NCBI GenBank assembly: GCA_965215885.1
Contig: CBDCEW010000026.1
Location: 1-16,560 of the forward strand
Length of the DNA stretch: 16,560 nucleotides
Source: Candidatus Moanibacter sp.
GTDB lineage: Bacteria; Verrucomicrobiota; Verrucomicrobiia; Opitutales; UBA2987
Reading direction: 5' to 3'
Below the pieces are notes generated by a model. The model had not been told where the DNA came from and searched no databases. It saw nothing but the letters and a program-made list of their open reading frames with translations. The position numbers and the translations under genes were made by a program. Below are positions 435 to 12,857 of this stretch, one piece after another; position 1 is the stretch's first letter; each line of letters opens with the position of its first letter.

Positions 435-869
435 ATGCCGTTATCGTTCAAAAGAACTATCATCATCTTTTCCACATTGCTCTCGCAGATAATGTTGGCT
501 GGCGGCGATGAGGTGCTTGTGCTTTGCTTCGGGGAGGATGGGCACCTGGCGATTGAGTCGGCACATTCCGATTGCCCGTATGGCCCTTACAACAAACACG
601 GTCACCCGGAGAATATCGACTTTACCGCCGAGACTCAAGATTCCGATGTTTCAGCGAAGACCGGATGTTTCGATTTGCCGATTTCCAGAGATGAGGTTCA
701 GCAGGTATTTTCCGGATTTGAATTCTCTCCCCCCCCACAGCATTGTGTCTTGTCAGAGATTCGACCAATCGAGTCACGGCAGGAGCACAGGACAGACCGC
801 GTCTCCGCGCGGCTTATTAATAAAGCAGAGGTTTATCGGGTCCTTAAGACCGTAATCCTGCTGCTCTGA
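435..869 (+). CDS. Small exported or membrane-anchored Cys/His-rich putative metal-binding protein upstream of czcC (CzcI-like position)
   Basis: ATG at 435, hydrophobic N-terminus, motif VLCFGEDGHLAIE, His/Cys-rich middle (HSDC..HGH..CFDLP), C-terminal LKTVILLL. Lies immediately upstream of an RND metal efflux operon. Confidence 0.7.
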   Translation: MPLSFKRTIIIFSTLLSQIMLAGGDEVLVLCFGEDGHLAIESAHSDCPYGPYNKHGHPENIDFTAETQDSDVSAKTGCFDLPISRDEVQQVFSGFEFSPPPQHCVLSEIRPIESRQEHRTDRVSARLINKAEVYRVLKTVILLL

Positions 870-870
870 T

Positions 871-988
871 TTCTCCGAAGTCATCCTTCCAGGTTGCGAA
901 CAGGACACAGCTTTTCTGTGTGTTCGCTCCAGCTTCGTGGTAGACCGACGAAGCTTTCTTGCCCAAAAGTGAAATGATTTTCGGAGGA
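871..988 (+). promoter_or_regulatory. Putative cis-regulatory three-stem RNA structure sequestering the czcC Shine-Dalgarno
   Basis: 871-884 (TTCTCCGAAGTCAT) pairs with 974-988 (ATGATTTTCGGAGGA, containing the SD GGAGGA). Internal hairpins: GCGAACA 896-902/TGTTCGC 921-927 and AGCTTCGT 931-938/ACGAAGCT 948-955. Confidence 0.5.
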
Positions 989-992
989 TCAT

Positions 993-2360
993 ATGTCTCA
1001 AAGAATTCTGCCCGCATACGGGCTCCCATTAATATTCACAGCAACGCTACTCGCTAATAACGGGGTCGATAGCGGACCCTTCCATAGCCAGTCATCCGAA
1101 ACAAGCCGGCCGTCACGACAAACCGTCGACTGGGATGCGCGAGGGTCCCCCGACGAGGTCGAAATTAGAGAACCCACCGGAGAAGTAACGCTACAGCATG
1201 CGCTGGCCCTTGCCTTACTCGAGAACCCAAAACTTCGCTCCTACTCGTTGAAAGTCCGTGCGGCGGAGGCCCGTGCTCTCCAAGCCGGCCTACTACCAAA
1301 TCCGGAGATCGAACTTGGAATTGGGGAATTCGGAGGATCGGGATCCAGGTCCGGACTTAAAAGTGTGGAAACTACTCTTCAGTTCAGCCAACTGATCGAG
1401 TTGGGCCGCAAACGGGCAAAGAGAAGGCGGGTGGCAACCTTCGAAGGCGAGCTCGCTGGTTGGGACTATGAAAGCGCTCGACTCGACGTTCTAGCGGAAA
1501 CGACCATGGCGTTTATCGACTTGCTCGCAGCGCAGCGACGATCTGAATTATCTCTGAATACCCTAAGACTGGCGAAAGAGTTTCACCTCGTTGTAACCGA
1601 ACGGGTCCAGGCGGGAAAGGTTTCGCCACTTGAAGAGGGACGCGCGCGGGTCGCTCTCGCACTCAGTGAAATTCAATCAGAGAGAGCGAAGCGTGAACTC
1701 AACGCTTCCCGGTCGAAGCTATCCGTCATGTGGGGGAAGGAGTCGGCGAACTTCAGGGAGGCAATGGGAAAACTTGAGCCCCTATTACCGCCGCCGGGAT
1801 CGAATCTCGAGGATTGGCCTTTACAGAATCCCGATCTTGACCGTTGGGAAACGGAAATCGAACTCCGCGAAGCGGCCCATCGACTCGAAAAATCACGTAG
1901 AATTCCGGATTTAACGCTGGGAGCGGGGATACAGTCATTTAATGAAACGGATGAGACCTCGGCGGTCGTCGCAGCGTCCATACCGATACCGCTCTTCGAC
2001 CGCAACCAAGGTGCCATTCGGGCAGCCGAGTTCGAGCTTTCCAAAGCGGCGGAAGAGCGACGAGCGGCGGAACTGCAGATCAGAAGTGCACTCAACGAGT
2101 CCTTTCAGGAATTGTCCAGTGCCTATGTCGAGGCGAAATTGCTGCTTGAGGAAGTTGCGCCGGCAGCTCGATTTGCAATGGAGGCGGCGCGATCAGGATA
2201 TGAGCAGGGAAAGAACGGATACATTGAAGTGCTCGACGCTCAACGTTCGTTCTTTGAGACCGAATTTCAGCTCATCGATTCGCTTCTCAATTACCACCGA
2301 TCGATGGCGGAATTGGAACGCCTGTTGGGACGGCCGTTAAACCATGGAACACAACATTAG
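993..2360 (+). CDS. czcC: TolC-family outer membrane efflux protein, CzcC type
   Basis: 455 aa with a signal peptide and the motifs QAGLLPNPEIEL, SQLIELGRKRAKR, IPIPLFDRNQGAI and GYIEVLDAQRSFF. SD GGAGGA upstream; operon context fits. Confidence 0.9.
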   Translation: MSQRILPAYGLPLIFTATLLANNGVDSGPFHSQSSETSRPSRQTVDWDARGSPDEVEIREPTGEVTLQHALALALLENPKLRSYSLKVRAAEARALQAGLLPNPEIELGIGEFGGSGSRSGLKSVETTLQFSQLIELGRKRAKRRRVATFEGELAGWDYESARLDVLAETTMAFIDLLAAQRRSELSLNTLRLAKEFHLVVTERVQAGKVSPLEEGRARVALALSEIQSERAKRELNASRSKLSVMWGKESANFREAMGKLEPLLPPPGSNLEDWPLQNPDLDRWETEIELREAAHRLEKSRRIPDLTLGAGIQSFNETDETSAVVAASIPIPLFDRNQGAIRAAEFELSKAAEERRAAELQIRSALNESFQELSSAYVEAKLLLEEVAPAARFAMEAARSGYEQGKNGYIEVLDAQRSFFETEFQLIDSLLNYHRSMAELERLLGRPLNHGTQH

Positions 2361-2624: not shown

Positions 2625-3878
2625 ATGAAAAAAGAGCTCTTTCAAATGATACCATTAAGCCTGGGCGTTGGACTGTTTTTCGCCCTCCCGGGATGTGGGC
2701 CCAATGTGCCCGAGGAACACGGGAGAATCGGTGGTTCAGAATCCTCGCATTCCAATTCGGAAGGTGCCCATGGGGACCACGATGCGAGTAGAGTAGAAGA
2801 GGTGCACAAGGCCTCGCAGGTGACCATTACCGCGAATCAGATCACGCTCGCCGAAATAGAGACGAAACCGGCGACAGTCGGCGCAATTTACAACGAACTC
2901 AAACTAACGGGCGAGGTGACCCTCAACCAGGACCGGGTGACACATATCGTACCGCGCGTTCCAGGGGTGGTTAGGGAAGTGCTCAAGACGCTCGGTGCTC
3001 AGGTCGACAGGGGAGAGGTCCTGGCCATCCTTGAAAGCCGTGAACTGGCTGACGCAAAGGCGGAATATCTCGCTTCGCGTGAACGCCTGAGTCTGGCAAA
3101 TGCAATCTTTACTCGAGAAGAAGCACTCTGGCAGAAGCAGATCTCCTCTGAGCAGGAATATCTGGACGCCAAACGGGTCCTCGCAGAAACGCGCATCGAA
3201 CTCCGCAGTTCAGAGCAGAAACTGCATGCCCTCGGTGTTTCCGAAAGCTATTTACGCACACTGCCGGAACAATCCGATCAATCATTTACACACTTCGAAA
3301 TGACAGCGCCATTTGCCGGCATTGTGATCGAAAAGCACATCACGCTGGGCGAAAAACTCGACGACGAAGAGAACGTATTCACTATCGCCGATCTGAACAC
3401 CGTCTGGGTAATAGGTAACGTCTATGAAAAAGATATCTCACGCGTCGCGGCTGGTCAATGGGCCAAGGTATCGGTCAAATCCTATCCCGATTCGCTGTTT
3501 CGCGGGCAGGTAGGGTGGATCGGAAGCACGCTCGAGGAGGAAACGCGCTCCCTGAATATCCGTGTGGAAGTGGCTAACAGGGGGCACATGCTCAAGCCCG
3601 GAATGTTCGCACGTCTGGCTCTCGAAATCGAAGAGAAGCAGAATACACTGATCGTCCCTCCATCGGCCTTACTGAGCCAGGGAGCTGAGACCATTCTTTT
3701 TGTCGAGGAGGGCCCCGGCCACTTCGAGCGCCGGGTAGTTGAAGTCGGCAATCGCTCGGCGACAGCAGTTGAAATACTCGATGGCGTAGGGGCCGGCGAA
3801 AAGGTCGTAACGAATGGCGCCTTCATCCTGAAATCGGAACTCGAAAAGGAGGGATTCGAAGCGGGACACGCCCACTAA
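2625..3878 (+). CDS. czcB: RND efflux periplasmic adaptor (membrane fusion protein), CzcB type
   Basis: 417 aa, lipobox-like FALPGC, His-rich linker, HIVPRVPGVV, APFAGIVIEKHITLGE, FTIADLNTVWV, LKPGMFA; ends in HAH. Confidence 0.9.
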   Translation: MKKELFQMIPLSLGVGLFFALPGCGPNVPEEHGRIGGSESSHSNSEGAHGDHDASRVEEVHKASQVTITANQITLAEIETKPATVGAIYNELKLTGEVTLNQDRVTHIVPRVPGVVREVLKTLGAQVDRGEVLAILESRELADAKAEYLASRERLSLANAIFTREEALWQKQISSEQEYLDAKRVLAETRIELRSSEQKLHALGVSESYLRTLPEQSDQSFTHFEMTAPFAGIVIEKHITLGEKLDDEENVFTIADLNTVWVIGNVYEKDISRVAAGQWAKVSVKSYPDSLFRGQVGWIGSTLEEETRSLNIRVEVANRGHMLKPGMFARLALEIEEKQNTLIVPPSALLSQGAETILFVEEGPGHFERRVVEVGNRSATAVEILDGVGAGEKVVTNGAFILKSELEKEGFEAGHAH

Positions 3879-4135
3879 CCCGAAAATCTCCTAGAGCAGC
3901 GTAGCCGCAACCAAAAAAGAAAAAGAGAACCGGTCTGCCGTACGGCAGACCACGCAAATGGACGCGAATGAAGAAGAATTGACCACGGATTCGAGCCGTC
4001 TTCGCTGTGCTGCGCCGAGCCAGGGAAAACCGCGAATTGAGAAAGTCAAATCCCGGCTTTGAATACCAACAAGTTACACCCCCAAACGTGTCAAAAAAAA
4101 CCAAGTTCTGACGGATAGTAATACAGATTTTCAGG
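3879..4135. mobile_element. 257-bp composite MITE-like element between czcB and czcA
   Basis: TIR CCCGAAAATCT (3879-3889) / AGATTTTCAGG (4125-4135), 10/11 match. Flanks are CTAA and TTAG. Contains a perfect 20-bp palindrome at 3932-3951. Abuts the czcB TAA. Confidence 0.6.
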
Positions 4136-4168
4136 TTAGTCCGCTTATTTGCGAAATAAGCGGACTAA
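4136..4168. repeat. Perfect 15-bp-stem hairpin (possibly a minimal element or an RNA stem)
   Basis: TTAGTCCGCTTATTT-GCG-AAATAAGCGGACTAA. The arms resemble the ends of the 11742/13017 elements (TAGCCCGCTTTT...GCGAAAAGCGGGCTA). Confidence 0.8.
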
Positions 4169-6484
4169 CACCCACCGGTAGCCGCAACCAGGAGTCGCCA
4201 ACGCAACAACCCTCATGATTAGCAGGCTGATTGAACTCGCACTGAGACACCGCTTTCTGGTCGTCGTGTTTGGCATAGTTATCGTCGCTTACGGAATCTA
4301 TTCGACCTTACGGCTCAATATCGACGCCTTTCCCGACGTAACCAACATCCAGGTACAGATCAATACCGAGGCAGCCGGACTGGCTGCGGTGGAAGTCGAA
4401 CAGCTCATCACTTTTCCGATCGAATCGGTCATGAACGGACTCCCCGACGTAACCGAAGTTCGCTCCATCTCCAAAACGGGGCTCTCCGTCGTTACGGTGG
4501 TCTTCGAGGACGATGTCGATATCTATTTCGCTCGACAGTTAGTTCTGGAACGGCTGCAGGCCGCGCGAGAGCGCATTCCCGAAGGTCTGGCCGAACCGGA
4601 GATGGGACCCATCACGACTGGCCTCGGCCAGATCTACAAGTACATCCTTGTCGGCCGGAACAAGACGGCGATGGAGTTGCGTACCATTAACGACTGGTTC
4701 GTAAAATTCCAGCTGCGCACGGTAACCGGGGTTACCGATGTACTCAGCAATGGGGGTGAAGTCAGGCAGTACCAGGTTCAGGTCGATCCTAACAAACTCT
4801 TCAAATACAACCTGGCACTTCCCGATCTCCGCGATGCCATTACCAACAACAACGCCAACGTCGGTGGGTGGTATATCGAGGGAGAACAGGAGCAGTATGT
4901 TGTTCGAGGAGCCGGTCTCATACGCGGCGGTCGGGAAGGTCTCATCGACATCGAAAACATCGTTCTCAAAAACGTTGGCGGTACTCCGGTTTATATCCGT
5001 GACGTTGCCGATGTGCGCTTTGGAAGCGAAATCCGACAGGGAGTCGTGACGATGAACGGCAAAGGAGAGGTCGTAATGGGCATCGTCCTGCAGCTTAAAG
5101 GTGCGAATACGAAAAAGGTAATTGAGGGAGTACGCGAAAAGTTAGATGCAATTCAGGCATCACTGCCCGAGGGCGTCGAAATTGTCCCGGTCTACGACCA
5201 GACGGACCTGGTCGAGAAAGCGGTTTCAACCGTAACCCGTGCCCTTACAGAAGCCGCGGTGCTCATAGTCATCGTGCTCTTCCTCTTTCTTGGGAATGTG
5301 CGATCGGCTTTTGTTGTAGTCTGTTCTATTCCCCTCTCAATGATGATCGCCTTTATCATGATGCGCTGGCAGGGGATCTCGGCTAACCTGCAGTCGCTGG
5401 GCGGACTCGCCATCGGCATTGGAATGATGGTCGACGGTTCCGTGGTCATGGTCGAGAATATCATGCGCCACCTGGCCGAGCCCAACCATCGCAAGGAACC
5501 CCTTGCACAACGCGTCCTCACCGCGGCTTGGGAGGTGGGACAACCGGTATTCTTCGCCGTGCTCATCATCGTGGTCGTCTTTCTACCATTGTTTACCCTT
5601 CAGGGTGTCGAAGGAAAGCTTTTCAGACCAATGGCCTTCACGATCGCTTTCGCCATGATGGGATCGCTCATGGTAGCTCTCACCATCGTGCCGGTTCTCT
5701 CCTCTATCGTGCTACGCGGCAAGTTAACGGAAAAGGAACCTTTCCTAATGCAGTTGCTTAAGGCGGTGTATCGTCCCGCGCTCGAATGGGCGCTCTCTCG
5801 CAGGGCTATTGTGGTGGGAACTGCCGTCTGCGCGTTGATTTTTTCGCTGGTAATCCTGCCCTTCCTTGGGACGGAATTCGTCCCCGAACTCAACGAAGGC
5901 ACGATGAACATTCGAGTTACCATGAACCCAAGCATTTCCCTCGAGGAGTCAAAACGCATCGCCCGGCGCCTTGAAAGGAAGCTGATGCAGTACCCAGAGG
6001 TAACCTATGCTTTCAGCCAAATCGGGAGACCTGAACTGGGAGGAGACCCCGAACCAATCTCGAATAATGAGATCTTTGTAGGTTTGAAATCGCAGGCGAA
6101 ATGGACAACAGCGGACACTCGCGAAGAGTTGATCCGCACTTTCGATCAGGATCTGCGCGAACACCCGGGGATCATGCTGAATTTCTCTCAACCTATTGCG
6201 ACTCGCGTCGATGAACTCCTATCGGGTGTCAAGGCCCAGATTGCGATCAAGTTGTTCGGCGAAGATCTTGACGTATTGGAACGAACAGGAAGGGAGATCG
6301 AGGCGGTGGCTAAAACCATTCCCGGCGCTACCGACGTCCAAATGGAACAGATTAGTGGGGAAGCCCAGCTGGTCGTCCGGGCCGACCGGGATGAAGTAGC
6401 CCGTTACGGCTTGAACGTAGCAGACGTCATGGAGATCGTTTCGAGCGCCGTCGGAGGGGAAGCGGTAACTGAGGTTATCGAGGG

Positions 6485-6533
6485 GAAACGCTTCGATGTT
6501 TATTTCGGGCCAGAAACGCTTCGATGTTTATTT
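6485..6533 (+). repeat. 21-bp direct repeat underlying czcA frameshift 1
   Basis: GAAACGCTTCGATGTTTATTT at 6485-6505 and 6513-6533. Confidence 0.95.
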
Positions 6534-6908
6534 GCGTATGGCCGAACCGTATCGCGACAGTCCCGATGCAATTGCGAATCTCTGGGTATCGAATAGGAAC
6601 GGGATGCGTGTTCCCCTATCACAGGTAGCCGATATTCGACTCGTGGAGGGCACACCCACGGTCAGCCGCGAAGACGCTCAGCGCCGCATTGTCGTACAAT
6701 GCAATGTTCGTGGTCGTGATATGGGGGGGTTCGTGCAGGAAGCGCAACAAGCGGTCAGAGAACAGGTCGATCTTCCCGCCGGCTATTTCGTCACTTGGGG
6801 AGGGCAATTCGAAAACCAAAGGCGCGCGCAGGCTACCCTGATGGTCGTCCTACCCGTTTGCCTTGGCCTTATCTTCATATTGCTCTTCATGTCGTTCAAT
6901 TCGGTTAA

Positions 6909-7361
<453 letters not shown>

Positions 7362-7464
7362 TGAGAAAGTAAGCAATCGCGTTCCGGCATGTCGGGATGG
7401 GGAATTACCAAGTTAGAAAAACCGAATATTGCCAAATCCAAACCTCACCCCGAGAATTTAAGAC

Positions 7465-12015: not shown

Positions 12016-12857
12016 ATGTTCCGGCATTCTCTCGCCATGTTCACCGGTAAGCTAACGTCCCATCTGAAATTCGCTCTCCTCACTCTATTCTCGCATGTTC
12101 TCGCTCTCCTCTACTCTCATGGCAGAGGAGGCGGGAACGCTGCCTCAGAGCAAGAGCCTATGGTCGCTCATTCAGCAAGGAGGATGGGCGATGTATCCCC
12201 TCAGTCTCTGTTCGCTCGCGGTGATATTTCTTTTCATCCACAGTTGGAGAGCAAGACCGGAAGGAGGAGATTTATCCCGGACCATGTCCTGGATGAATTG
12301 GCTTCTCGATTCCAGAAACGCGATATCGGTGAAGCTCTCTTTACTTTGGAGGAGCACTCATGCGTTCTTTCAAGGGCAATGGTGACAAGCCTTCCACCCC
12401 GGGCCAAGGCCCGTCCCGAGGCACCCGATGCCAACAAGGAAAAGATCGAGTCGGCTTTTCTCGATGCTCTAGACGGTGAAGAGAATTGGCTTCCATTCCA
12501 GAAACGCGACAGTGGATAAACTACCTAAATGTCGTGGCCGCCGTAGACGGTGAAGAGAATTCCTCTCCCATGATTGGATTGCTCGGTACCGTCAGTGGGA
12601 TGATCGGCGCTTTCGCCACCATCGCCAGCGGCGGAATGGGGCGGCCCGAGCTGCTCGCCGGCGATATCGGTGAAGCGCTTATTACCACTGCCACCGGTCT
12701 CGTAATCGGGATTCCCGCAATGATCTTTTACTTCGTGCTGCGCAACCGCCTCAACAATATCATCCTCGCTACGACGCAGACAGCCACCCTACTGATCGAT
12801 TATTTGGCAGGCGAATTGCAGGTAGATTCCGAGGATGAGACAGAGAACGAATCCTAG
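12016..12857 (+). pseudogene. MotA/TolQ/ExbB proton-channel family gene with multiple frameshifts and insertions (pseudogene or artifact)
   Basis: Segments in alternating frames: signal-like N-terminus, SLWSLIQQGGWAMYPLSLCS, RFIPD...KIESAFLDALDGEEN, then QWINYLNVVAAV...PMIGLLGTVSGMIGAF...LAGDIGEALITTATGLVIGIPA. Confidence 0.85.

Follow-up and report, generated by a model that had tools for sequence, protein, structure and literature searches.

Genes and features of the locus

The window analyzed here is the whole 16,560-nucleotide stretch of contig CBDCEW010000026.1 from Candidatus Moanibacter sp. A leader ORF of 144 codons was found near its left end, and 123 nt separate the leader stop from genes of the czcC, czcB, and czcA type (Table 1). 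The RND transporter gene lies in three overlapping frames in the window assembly (ORFs 4215-6596, 6496-7158, and 7038-7364). A 25-nt stretch at about position 6482 was absent from three DNA runs, and at least the first of the frame breaks probably reflects an assembly artefact or a peculiarity of the strain. The two long spacers within the operon, 2361-2624 and 3879-4214, contain repeated elements with 19 and 147 BLAST matches in the own genome, respectively; one DNA run gave a contig skipping 3879-4171, and we read these elements as MITE/REP-like insertions.

Positions 1-399 hold a DHDPS-family gene, and a TTGACA sequence overlaps its stop. Since this gene stops 35 nt upstream of the leader, read-through into the leader is possible; no terminator was found between the two, and no sigma-70 promoter was found on the + strand of 1-1500. 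One metatranscriptome contig covers 755-1133, although such contigs cannot show transcript, strand, or level. Farther along the window, 3' of a large TPR protein, a presumably ExbB/MotA-like gene (12016-12857; named by eye, the first part having no Pfam match) seemingly lies in two frames, 12016-12519 and 12486-12857. A previous reading of the DNA from sequence only had remarked that no regulator is adjacent to the operon. Indeed none adjoins it in the window, which is weak evidence, response regulators being the upstream neighbours in 2 of 32 relatives.

Table 1 Features of the leader, the spacer, and the following operon (positions in the window).
Feature	Position	Strand	Evidence
Leader ORF, 144 aa	435..869	+	ORF list; homologs with equal start and length
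Hydrophobic N-terminal helix, residues 4-22, likely signal peptide/anchor	444..500	+	AF2 helix, pLDDT 84-90
Core VLCxGxDGHxAxE..C, residues 29-47, predicted beta-hairpin, candidate metal/disulfide site	519..575	+	Conservation and AF2
Invariant C78-x-D80 (family CxxCxD)	666..674	+	C78 and D80 both in 146/146
Stop-anchored tail YRVLKTVILLL-TGA, candidate termination-arrest motif	834..869	+	150-representative logo
Anti-SD arm, 1 nt 3' of the stop	871..884	+	MFE fold, pair probabilities, duplex shuffles
Second, slid anti-SD register, pairs with 983-989 once the first arm is masked	883..889	+	Constrained folds
Inner hairpin 1	896..927	+	MFE and pair probabilities; G-U-tolerated change at 909 (sister strain)
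Inner hairpin 2	931..955	+	MFE and pair probabilities; paired change 931/955 A-U to G-C, G-U-tolerated 951 (sister strain)
czcC RBS arm, SD GGAGG at 983-987	974..988	+	Sequence, MFE fold, pair probabilities
CzcC/TolC-type outer membrane factor	993..2360	+	PF02321 E 9e-49; best NCBIfam IhpA, below cut-off
CzcB-type periplasmic adaptor	2625..3878	+	PF16576; best NCBIfam TIGR00999, below cut-off
CusA/CzcA-family RND transporter, three overlapping frames	4215..7364	+	TIGR00914 860 bits, above cut-off

The leader protein and its family

Pfam, NCBIfam, PDB sequence, and Foldseek searches with the window leader gave no match, and a single-sequence search found only two close relatives. A seed of 14 sequences was taken from weak matches in 401 genomes of the own phylum and in metagenomes. 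The resulting profile retrieved 146 leader-family proteins from the 90% collection, and in a 50%-identity library it matched 3,140 clusters at E ≤ 0.001 (472 at 1e-10), the best 150 of which were examined. The 146 aligned members had no Pfam family in common, the PDB was likewise empty, and no NCBIfam family was common to more than three of them. The carriers include Poribacteria, Planctomycetota, Kiritimatiellia, Methylococcales, Desulfuromonadales, Acidobacteriota, and Calditrichaceae, with Methylomonas, Methylococcus, and Nitrosococcus as cultured representatives, and in the own phylum the family is patchy (11/401 genomes with the N-terminal profile). Five loci from weak genome matches (L002, L006, L008, L010, and L011) were rejected as members.

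The N-terminus of the window leader had a 12-residue hydropathy of 2.04, and values of at least 1.8 were found in 138/146 members. In the core, C31 was present in 146/146, H37 in 145/146, E41 in 139/146, D35 in 130/146, and C47 in 131/146 members, and AF2 placed strands at residues 28-32 and 38-42. Position 75, Cys in 110/146 members, is Lys in the window member, and the window leader is without one of the four family cysteines; CxxC (107/146) and CxxxC (35/146) are both absent from it. The ORF had been characterized as Cys/His-rich and exported. The richness proved to be moderate (four Cys and six His in 144 residues), and the hydrophobic N-terminal helix is the one indication of export. Column identity was 0.52 in the core, 0.45 in the tail, and 0.10 in the linker. 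The last invariant Cys lies 61-74 residues from the C-terminal end in 146/146 members (sd 3.0), a narrow linker length that is partly a product of the profile search itself, and compensation between the two spacer halves was weak (Pearson -0.15, p 0.08; Spearman -0.24, p 0.004). The AF2 models were of low confidence past the N-terminal helix and the hairpin (pLDDT 52.9 and 64.5) and uninformative for the tail, and the chain was mostly predicted to be poorly ordered (pTM 0.31).

A leader member was found in 116 of the 121 sequences of the locus set. Excluded were two copies of the window, four loci without a downstream start inside the available flank or 450 nt, three without the tail (L082, L104, and L107), and one open at a contig end, and the 106 loci kept form 38 clusters at 50% leader identity. 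Downstream starts were chosen by a rule blind to pairing; that of L004, which represents the cluster of L003 (next gene, a czcA fragment without a start), was probably mis-picked and was counted as a miss. The next gene carried PF02321 (TolC/CzcC-type) in 33/38 clusters, namely 32/37 relatives and the window, and among the other relatives it was a PF16576 membrane-fusion protein in one and had no match in four. All 11 RND N-termini found in the flanks (11/38 clusters) bear the motif DA[VF]PD[IV][TS], which we take to be CzcA-like and not CusA-like. On a complete Methylomonas plasmid, the order is leader, tolC, adaptor, cusA/czcA, and P-type ATPase. One contig (G158:C24) carries paralogous leaders 8 kb apart, L005 and L040, which head consecutive efflux units. 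The leader of L015 heads a 146-aa lipoprotein-like ORF and that of L035 a 381-aa exported protein without an assigned family; these non-TolC genes point to additional leader targets. Judged by sequence comparison, a large leader family of 3,140 clusters, unnamed and without a published description that we could find, precedes metal efflux genes in most of the loci examined; the search for a description of the family or its tail covered the open-access literature, with subscription journals outside it.

A tail fixed against the stop codon

The consensus of the family tail is L-R-[TS]-[VIT]-[VI]-L-[LR]-[IV]-stop. Counting from the last residue in 150 representatives, L was found at -3 in 145, T/S at -6 in 136, V/I at -4 in 136, I/V at -1 in 124, L/F at -11 in 111, and R at -7 in 108. 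The search was rerun with only the N-terminal 90 profile positions as a check on circularity, and the six new loci thus recovered all had a stop-anchored tail, indicating that the tail is no profile artefact. Conservation of the C-terminal motif in homologs had been proposed as a check of the leader idea; both the motif and its register to the stop are kept across phyla. The tail codons vary freely, with both Ser codon families and five Arg codons, and all three stop codons occur (20 TGA, 9 TAA, and 9 TAG in 38 representatives), which suggests that both the peptide and its register are under selection. We rejected a conserved stop codon, and codon variety led us to reject an RNA-level cause of the tail conservation as well.

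The window ORF ends in LKTVILLL without RAPP or RGPP, as the sequence-only reading had noted, and PP is absent too, no proline occurring among the last 32 residues. PP was found in the last 25 residues of 17/38 representatives and in the last 15 of 8/146 members, and RAPP-like sequences in the last 40 of 4/146. The suspicion that the ORF stands for a different leader class was thus justified at the level of motifs, which set it apart from RAPP/PP leaders. Pro is found at -17 in 47/150 and at -18 in 54/150 representatives. Two members from the same taxonomic order as the window have RGPP (L038) and CGPP (L037) 17-20 residues upstream of the leader end and are, from their sequences, possible intermediates between RGPP leaders and the family with the stop-anchored tail. 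Some members with an upstream PP/RGPP may pause earlier than the stop, and the upstream di-prolines together with the language-model neighbours described below hint at kinship with CutF/RGPP leaders.

Predicted pairing between the post-stop arm and the czcC ribosome-binding site

The leader TGA (867-869) ends 1 nt before the strand 871-884, which had been proposed to pair with the czcC SD region at 974-988. This pairing was recovered in the MFE fold with 14 pairs, of which two are G-U, and one bulge. In four folding spans of 141-401 nt, the pairs 873-878:986-981, which include the SD, had probabilities of 0.75-1.0, and the pairs 881-883:977-975 had probabilities of 0.95-0.99. The two hairpins, described earlier as clean, were both present in the MFE fold with probabilities of 0.99-1.0 at the pairs checked. 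The post-stop/RBS duplex of the window had an energy of -18.1 kcal/mol (z -4.4, p 0.0015 with 2000 composition-keeping shuffles). The fold of 840-1020 as a whole was not unusually stable (z -1.44; 14/200 shuffles equally good), and Rfam gave no match at E ≤ 5 in 300-1200. Among the 36 listed of the 83 differences in a sister-strain contig, nine fall in the spacer. None of these nine touches a long-range arm; three lie in the inner hairpins, one being a paired change from A-U to G-C and the other two tolerated as G-U.

When the stop codon occupies the A site, the ribosome shields about 9-10 nt past it. With this footprint, a ribosome at the end of the ORF would reach only to about 879 and would leave exposed part of 871-884, all of which it had been proposed to cover. 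The predicted cost of opening the window SD was 8.6 kcal/mol free, 6.1-6.5 with 9-12 nt masked, and 3.6 with 18 nt masked. The relief is only about 2 kcal/mol because the slid 7-bp helix 883-889:983-989 re-closes the SD.

The spacers between leaders and czcC-type genes have a median of 120 nt. Because spacers from different clades cannot be aligned and those of a single clade share only about 60% identity, pairing in the family was examined by cognate versus non-cognate permutation (post-stop 23 nt against the RBS, 20,000 permutations). In the 38 clusters, the cognate duplex had an energy of -11.6 against -8.5 kcal/mol for non-cognate pairs (z -7.1, 0/20,000 permutations), with p-values overstated since kin are not independent and the controls come from one genome; at 40% clustering (32 clusters), z was -6.1. 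The signal peaked 0-4 nt from the stop and was gone from offset 12, and four control samples of 38 own-genome gene pairs each gave z of +0.6 to +1.1. Within clades, the cognate z was -2.5 (18), -2.6 (26), -2.5 (15), and -3.9 (14), while control offsets did not exceed 1.8. Windows inside the leader ORF showed a cognate excess too (z -2.0 to -3.8), which is partly shared GC.

Composition-keeping shuffles gave p ≤ 0.05 at the stop in 12/38 clusters against 9/120 controls, and at offsets of -20, -40, +20, and +40 in 7/38, 3/38, 1/38, and 0/38, respectively. At least five expected arm/RBS pairs were found in 18/38 clusters and 12/150 controls. Masking 10 nt past the stop lowered the RBS-opening cost by a median of 4.2 kcal/mol, compared with 0.0 in controls; the relief was at least 3 kcal/mol in 22/38 clusters, and about 40% had little predicted relief. 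With gaps matched (≤170 nt), SD opening cost 6.4 kcal/mol against 2.7 in controls when free and 2.9 against 2.9 with 9 nt masked, and a relief of at least 2 kcal/mol was seen in 22/31 loci against 4/110 controls. The anti-SD pairing directly 3' of the stop, which homologs had been expected to conserve, is locus-specific and kept across phyla, though not in every cluster. The folding predicts that the SD is masked and that a ribosome stopped at the leader end would relieve it, more weakly in the window. Normal termination at the leader stop would also melt the arm for a short time, and thus the pairing alone needs no stall.

Comparison with known leader systems

In Rhodobacter capsulatus, CutF is a small exported first cistron with a Cys core, for which a metal-induced stall has been proposed to melt an SD-hiding stem; the stall occurs at a C-terminal PPP, and Cu is bound via CxxxC (PMC9973294, bioRxiv 2025.02.05.636593). 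The gene that follows a CutF-like gene most often encodes an outer membrane efflux protein (PMC9973294). The present family likewise forms a small first cistron with a Cys core, a predicted SD-hiding stem, and an efflux gene next to it, whereas its long-range helix encloses inner hairpins and its tail lacks PPP. The window leader has 144 aa against about 150 or less in the CutF-like criterion, a hydrophobic segment occurs in 138/146 members, and the leaders lie upstream of a metal-type gene on the same strand (PF02321 in 33/38 clusters, PF16576 in one). Because PP occurs so rarely in the last 15 residues, the PP filter of the CutF-like survey (PMC9973294) would have removed the family; three supplementary files of that paper contained no match to it.

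PF11162 (DUF2946) matched 0/146 members at E ≤ 0.01, with a model so insensitive that CzcI scores 15.7 against a cut-off of 23.7, and a protein named in UniRef as "DUF2946 domain-containing" (P0023) had no PF11162 match at E ≤ 10. Language-model neighbours included DUF6769 and DUF2946 clusters at 0.91-0.92 (about 100/256 features shared), which we treat as a lead only, and DUF8199 was likewise among the weak neighbours. Motif tests do not support membership in DUF2946, and by analogy the leader would work like CutF, its closest counterpart in mechanism and one that the sequence-only reading had not named.

CruR (Bp2923, Bordetella pertussis) combines RAPP elongation arrest with Rho termination, by which metal switches an importer off (PMC9426467; RAPP leaders are surveyed in PMC12992588). 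It resembles the present family as a metal-responsive uORF, a response that is conjectural here, with conserved sensor-to-tail spacing and a long spacer to the next gene. In contrast to CruR, the family is without RAPP, heads an exporter, and has an anti-SD arm. In the exported uORFs ending in NSP-, NAP-, and DGMK-stop, the motif is fixed against the stop and arrest requires the stop codon (PMC10987492); these differ in having other motifs, a position upstream of secA/secDF, and no metal core. PepNL arrests at a stop codon, where an Ile near the C-terminus blocks RF2 (PMC11890864). Arrest at the stop, as proposed for the leader, is common to TnaC and PepNL, but those are tiny cytoplasmic peptides with no export and no metal, and the leader family uses all three stops.

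CzcI of Cupriavidus metallidurans pMOL30 is likewise a small exported protein with His and Cys, encoded immediately upstream of czcCBA. It differs in ending RAPDRPQWQRLA, and PMC10127602 describes it as a trans-acting quencher. The C-terminal end of CzcI reads RAPDRP..., and the czcI stop of pMOL30 (L121:10480-10620) lies inside a predicted helix that reaches the czcC start (z -2.29). From this modelled fold, CzcI may also act as a cis leader besides its reported role in trans.

Proposed mechanism and alternative explanations

In the mechanism we propose, the leader would be exported co-translationally via Sec, and its Cys/His/Asp/Glu core would fold on emerging from the translocon, at a distance of 61-74 residues from the peptidyl transferase centre. 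A periplasmic domain has been described to fold and pull on the ribosome at about 70 residues from that centre (bioRxiv 2021.02.06.430026; PMC7513700), a distance matched by the stretch between the last invariant Cys and the leader end; by analogy, the core would have just cleared the translocon by the time the ribosome arrives at the stop. The aliphatic tail would slow termination at this stop, and binding of a periplasmic divalent metal (Zn/Co/Ni/Cd type) would likely lengthen the pause. A ribosome dwelling at the stop would melt the post-stop arm, expose the czcC RBS, and turn the pump on. The parts of this scheme differ in strength. Cis control of czcC through the post-stop arm is highly probable, and arrest at the leader tail is reasonably probable. 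For metal as the signal, and for the whole chain of the switch, we consider the balance to be modestly in favour. The leader is, with a similarly modest preference, a likely cis-acting, CutF-like translational switch for czcC with a new, stop-anchored tail.

The pairing statistics suit stalling and plain translational coupling equally. Under coupling, normal termination would open the czcC RBS and keep synthesis proportional, while the protein, acting in trans in the periplasm, would bind metal or modulate the pump in the manner of CzcI, and its non-polar tail would be a protease tag or a structural strand. A precedent is CzcI, described as quenching CzcCBA from the periplasm (PMC10127602), and non-polar C-termini are noted as degradation signals in PMC9426467. 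We regard this explanation as unlikely, because hhalign found no profile similarity to CzcI (14% probability over 19 columns), structure prediction left most of the chain poorly ordered, a linker of 10% identity and narrow length has no obvious need in a free protein, and the conservation of the tail extends back to -11.

Rho-dependent attenuation in the style of CruR or TnaC would have the ribosome at the leader end shield a C-rich rut site, the anti-SD appearance being a by-product of C-richness. Between -60 and +18 relative to the stop, the C>G skew was 0.30-0.46 in the 38 representatives and about -0.1 in controls, the post-stop 12 nt contain 39% C and 12% G, and the long spacers are like that of cruR. 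At four-fold degenerate sites, however, the skew was weak (0.14 against 0.03, p 0.17; 22/38), suggesting that it is mostly amino-acid driven, and the window is without it (4 C and 8 G at -60). Since the complementarity is also locus-specific and beats composition-keeping shuffles, and the spacer is structured, attenuation by Rho appears improbable.

The same RNA switch could instead be driven by an arrest peptide that responds to export capacity or to the disulfide status of the periplasm. The four conserved cysteines could form disulfides, and such folding pulls on the ribosome (PMC7513700). Three of the four search criteria for Sec monitors in PMC10987492 apply to the family, namely a hydrophobic export-type N-terminus, a conserved C-terminus, and a spacer of more than 30 residues. 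Disulfides, however, need no invariant His, Asp, and Glu; the neighbours are metal RND genes, with the CzcA-type motif wherever an RND N-terminus was available; and the spacer length, narrow in this family, usually differs widely among Sec monitors (PMC10987492). No leader among the 37 relatives and the window lies upstream of secA/secDF/yidC. There is little to be said, in our judgment, for a signal other than metal of this kind. A functional pause at the di-proline 17-20 residues upstream, as a CutF/RGPP remnant with the tail secondary, has in its favour the prolines at -17 and -18 and the motifs of L038 and L037, but it is very improbable given the proline-free last 32 residues of the window leader and an anti-SD signal that peaks at the stop.

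Nascent-chain metal sensing has so far been proven only for copper and for proline-based motifs (CutF and CruR). Going beyond the window, we tentatively propose, as a reading that may well turn out otherwise, a widespread proline-free termination-arrest class (L-R-T-V-V-L-L-I-stop) that would read periplasmic Zn/Co/Ni/Cd via nascent-chain force and open czcCBA-type pumps. It would operate in Planctomycetota, Poribacteria, Kiritimatiellia, methanotrophs, and others, with no two-component system and with both release factors. If true, this would represent a large cross-phylum family with a new termination-arrest chemistry and a non-copper ligand, and it would explain the induction of many czcCBA-like operons that have no neighbouring regulators.
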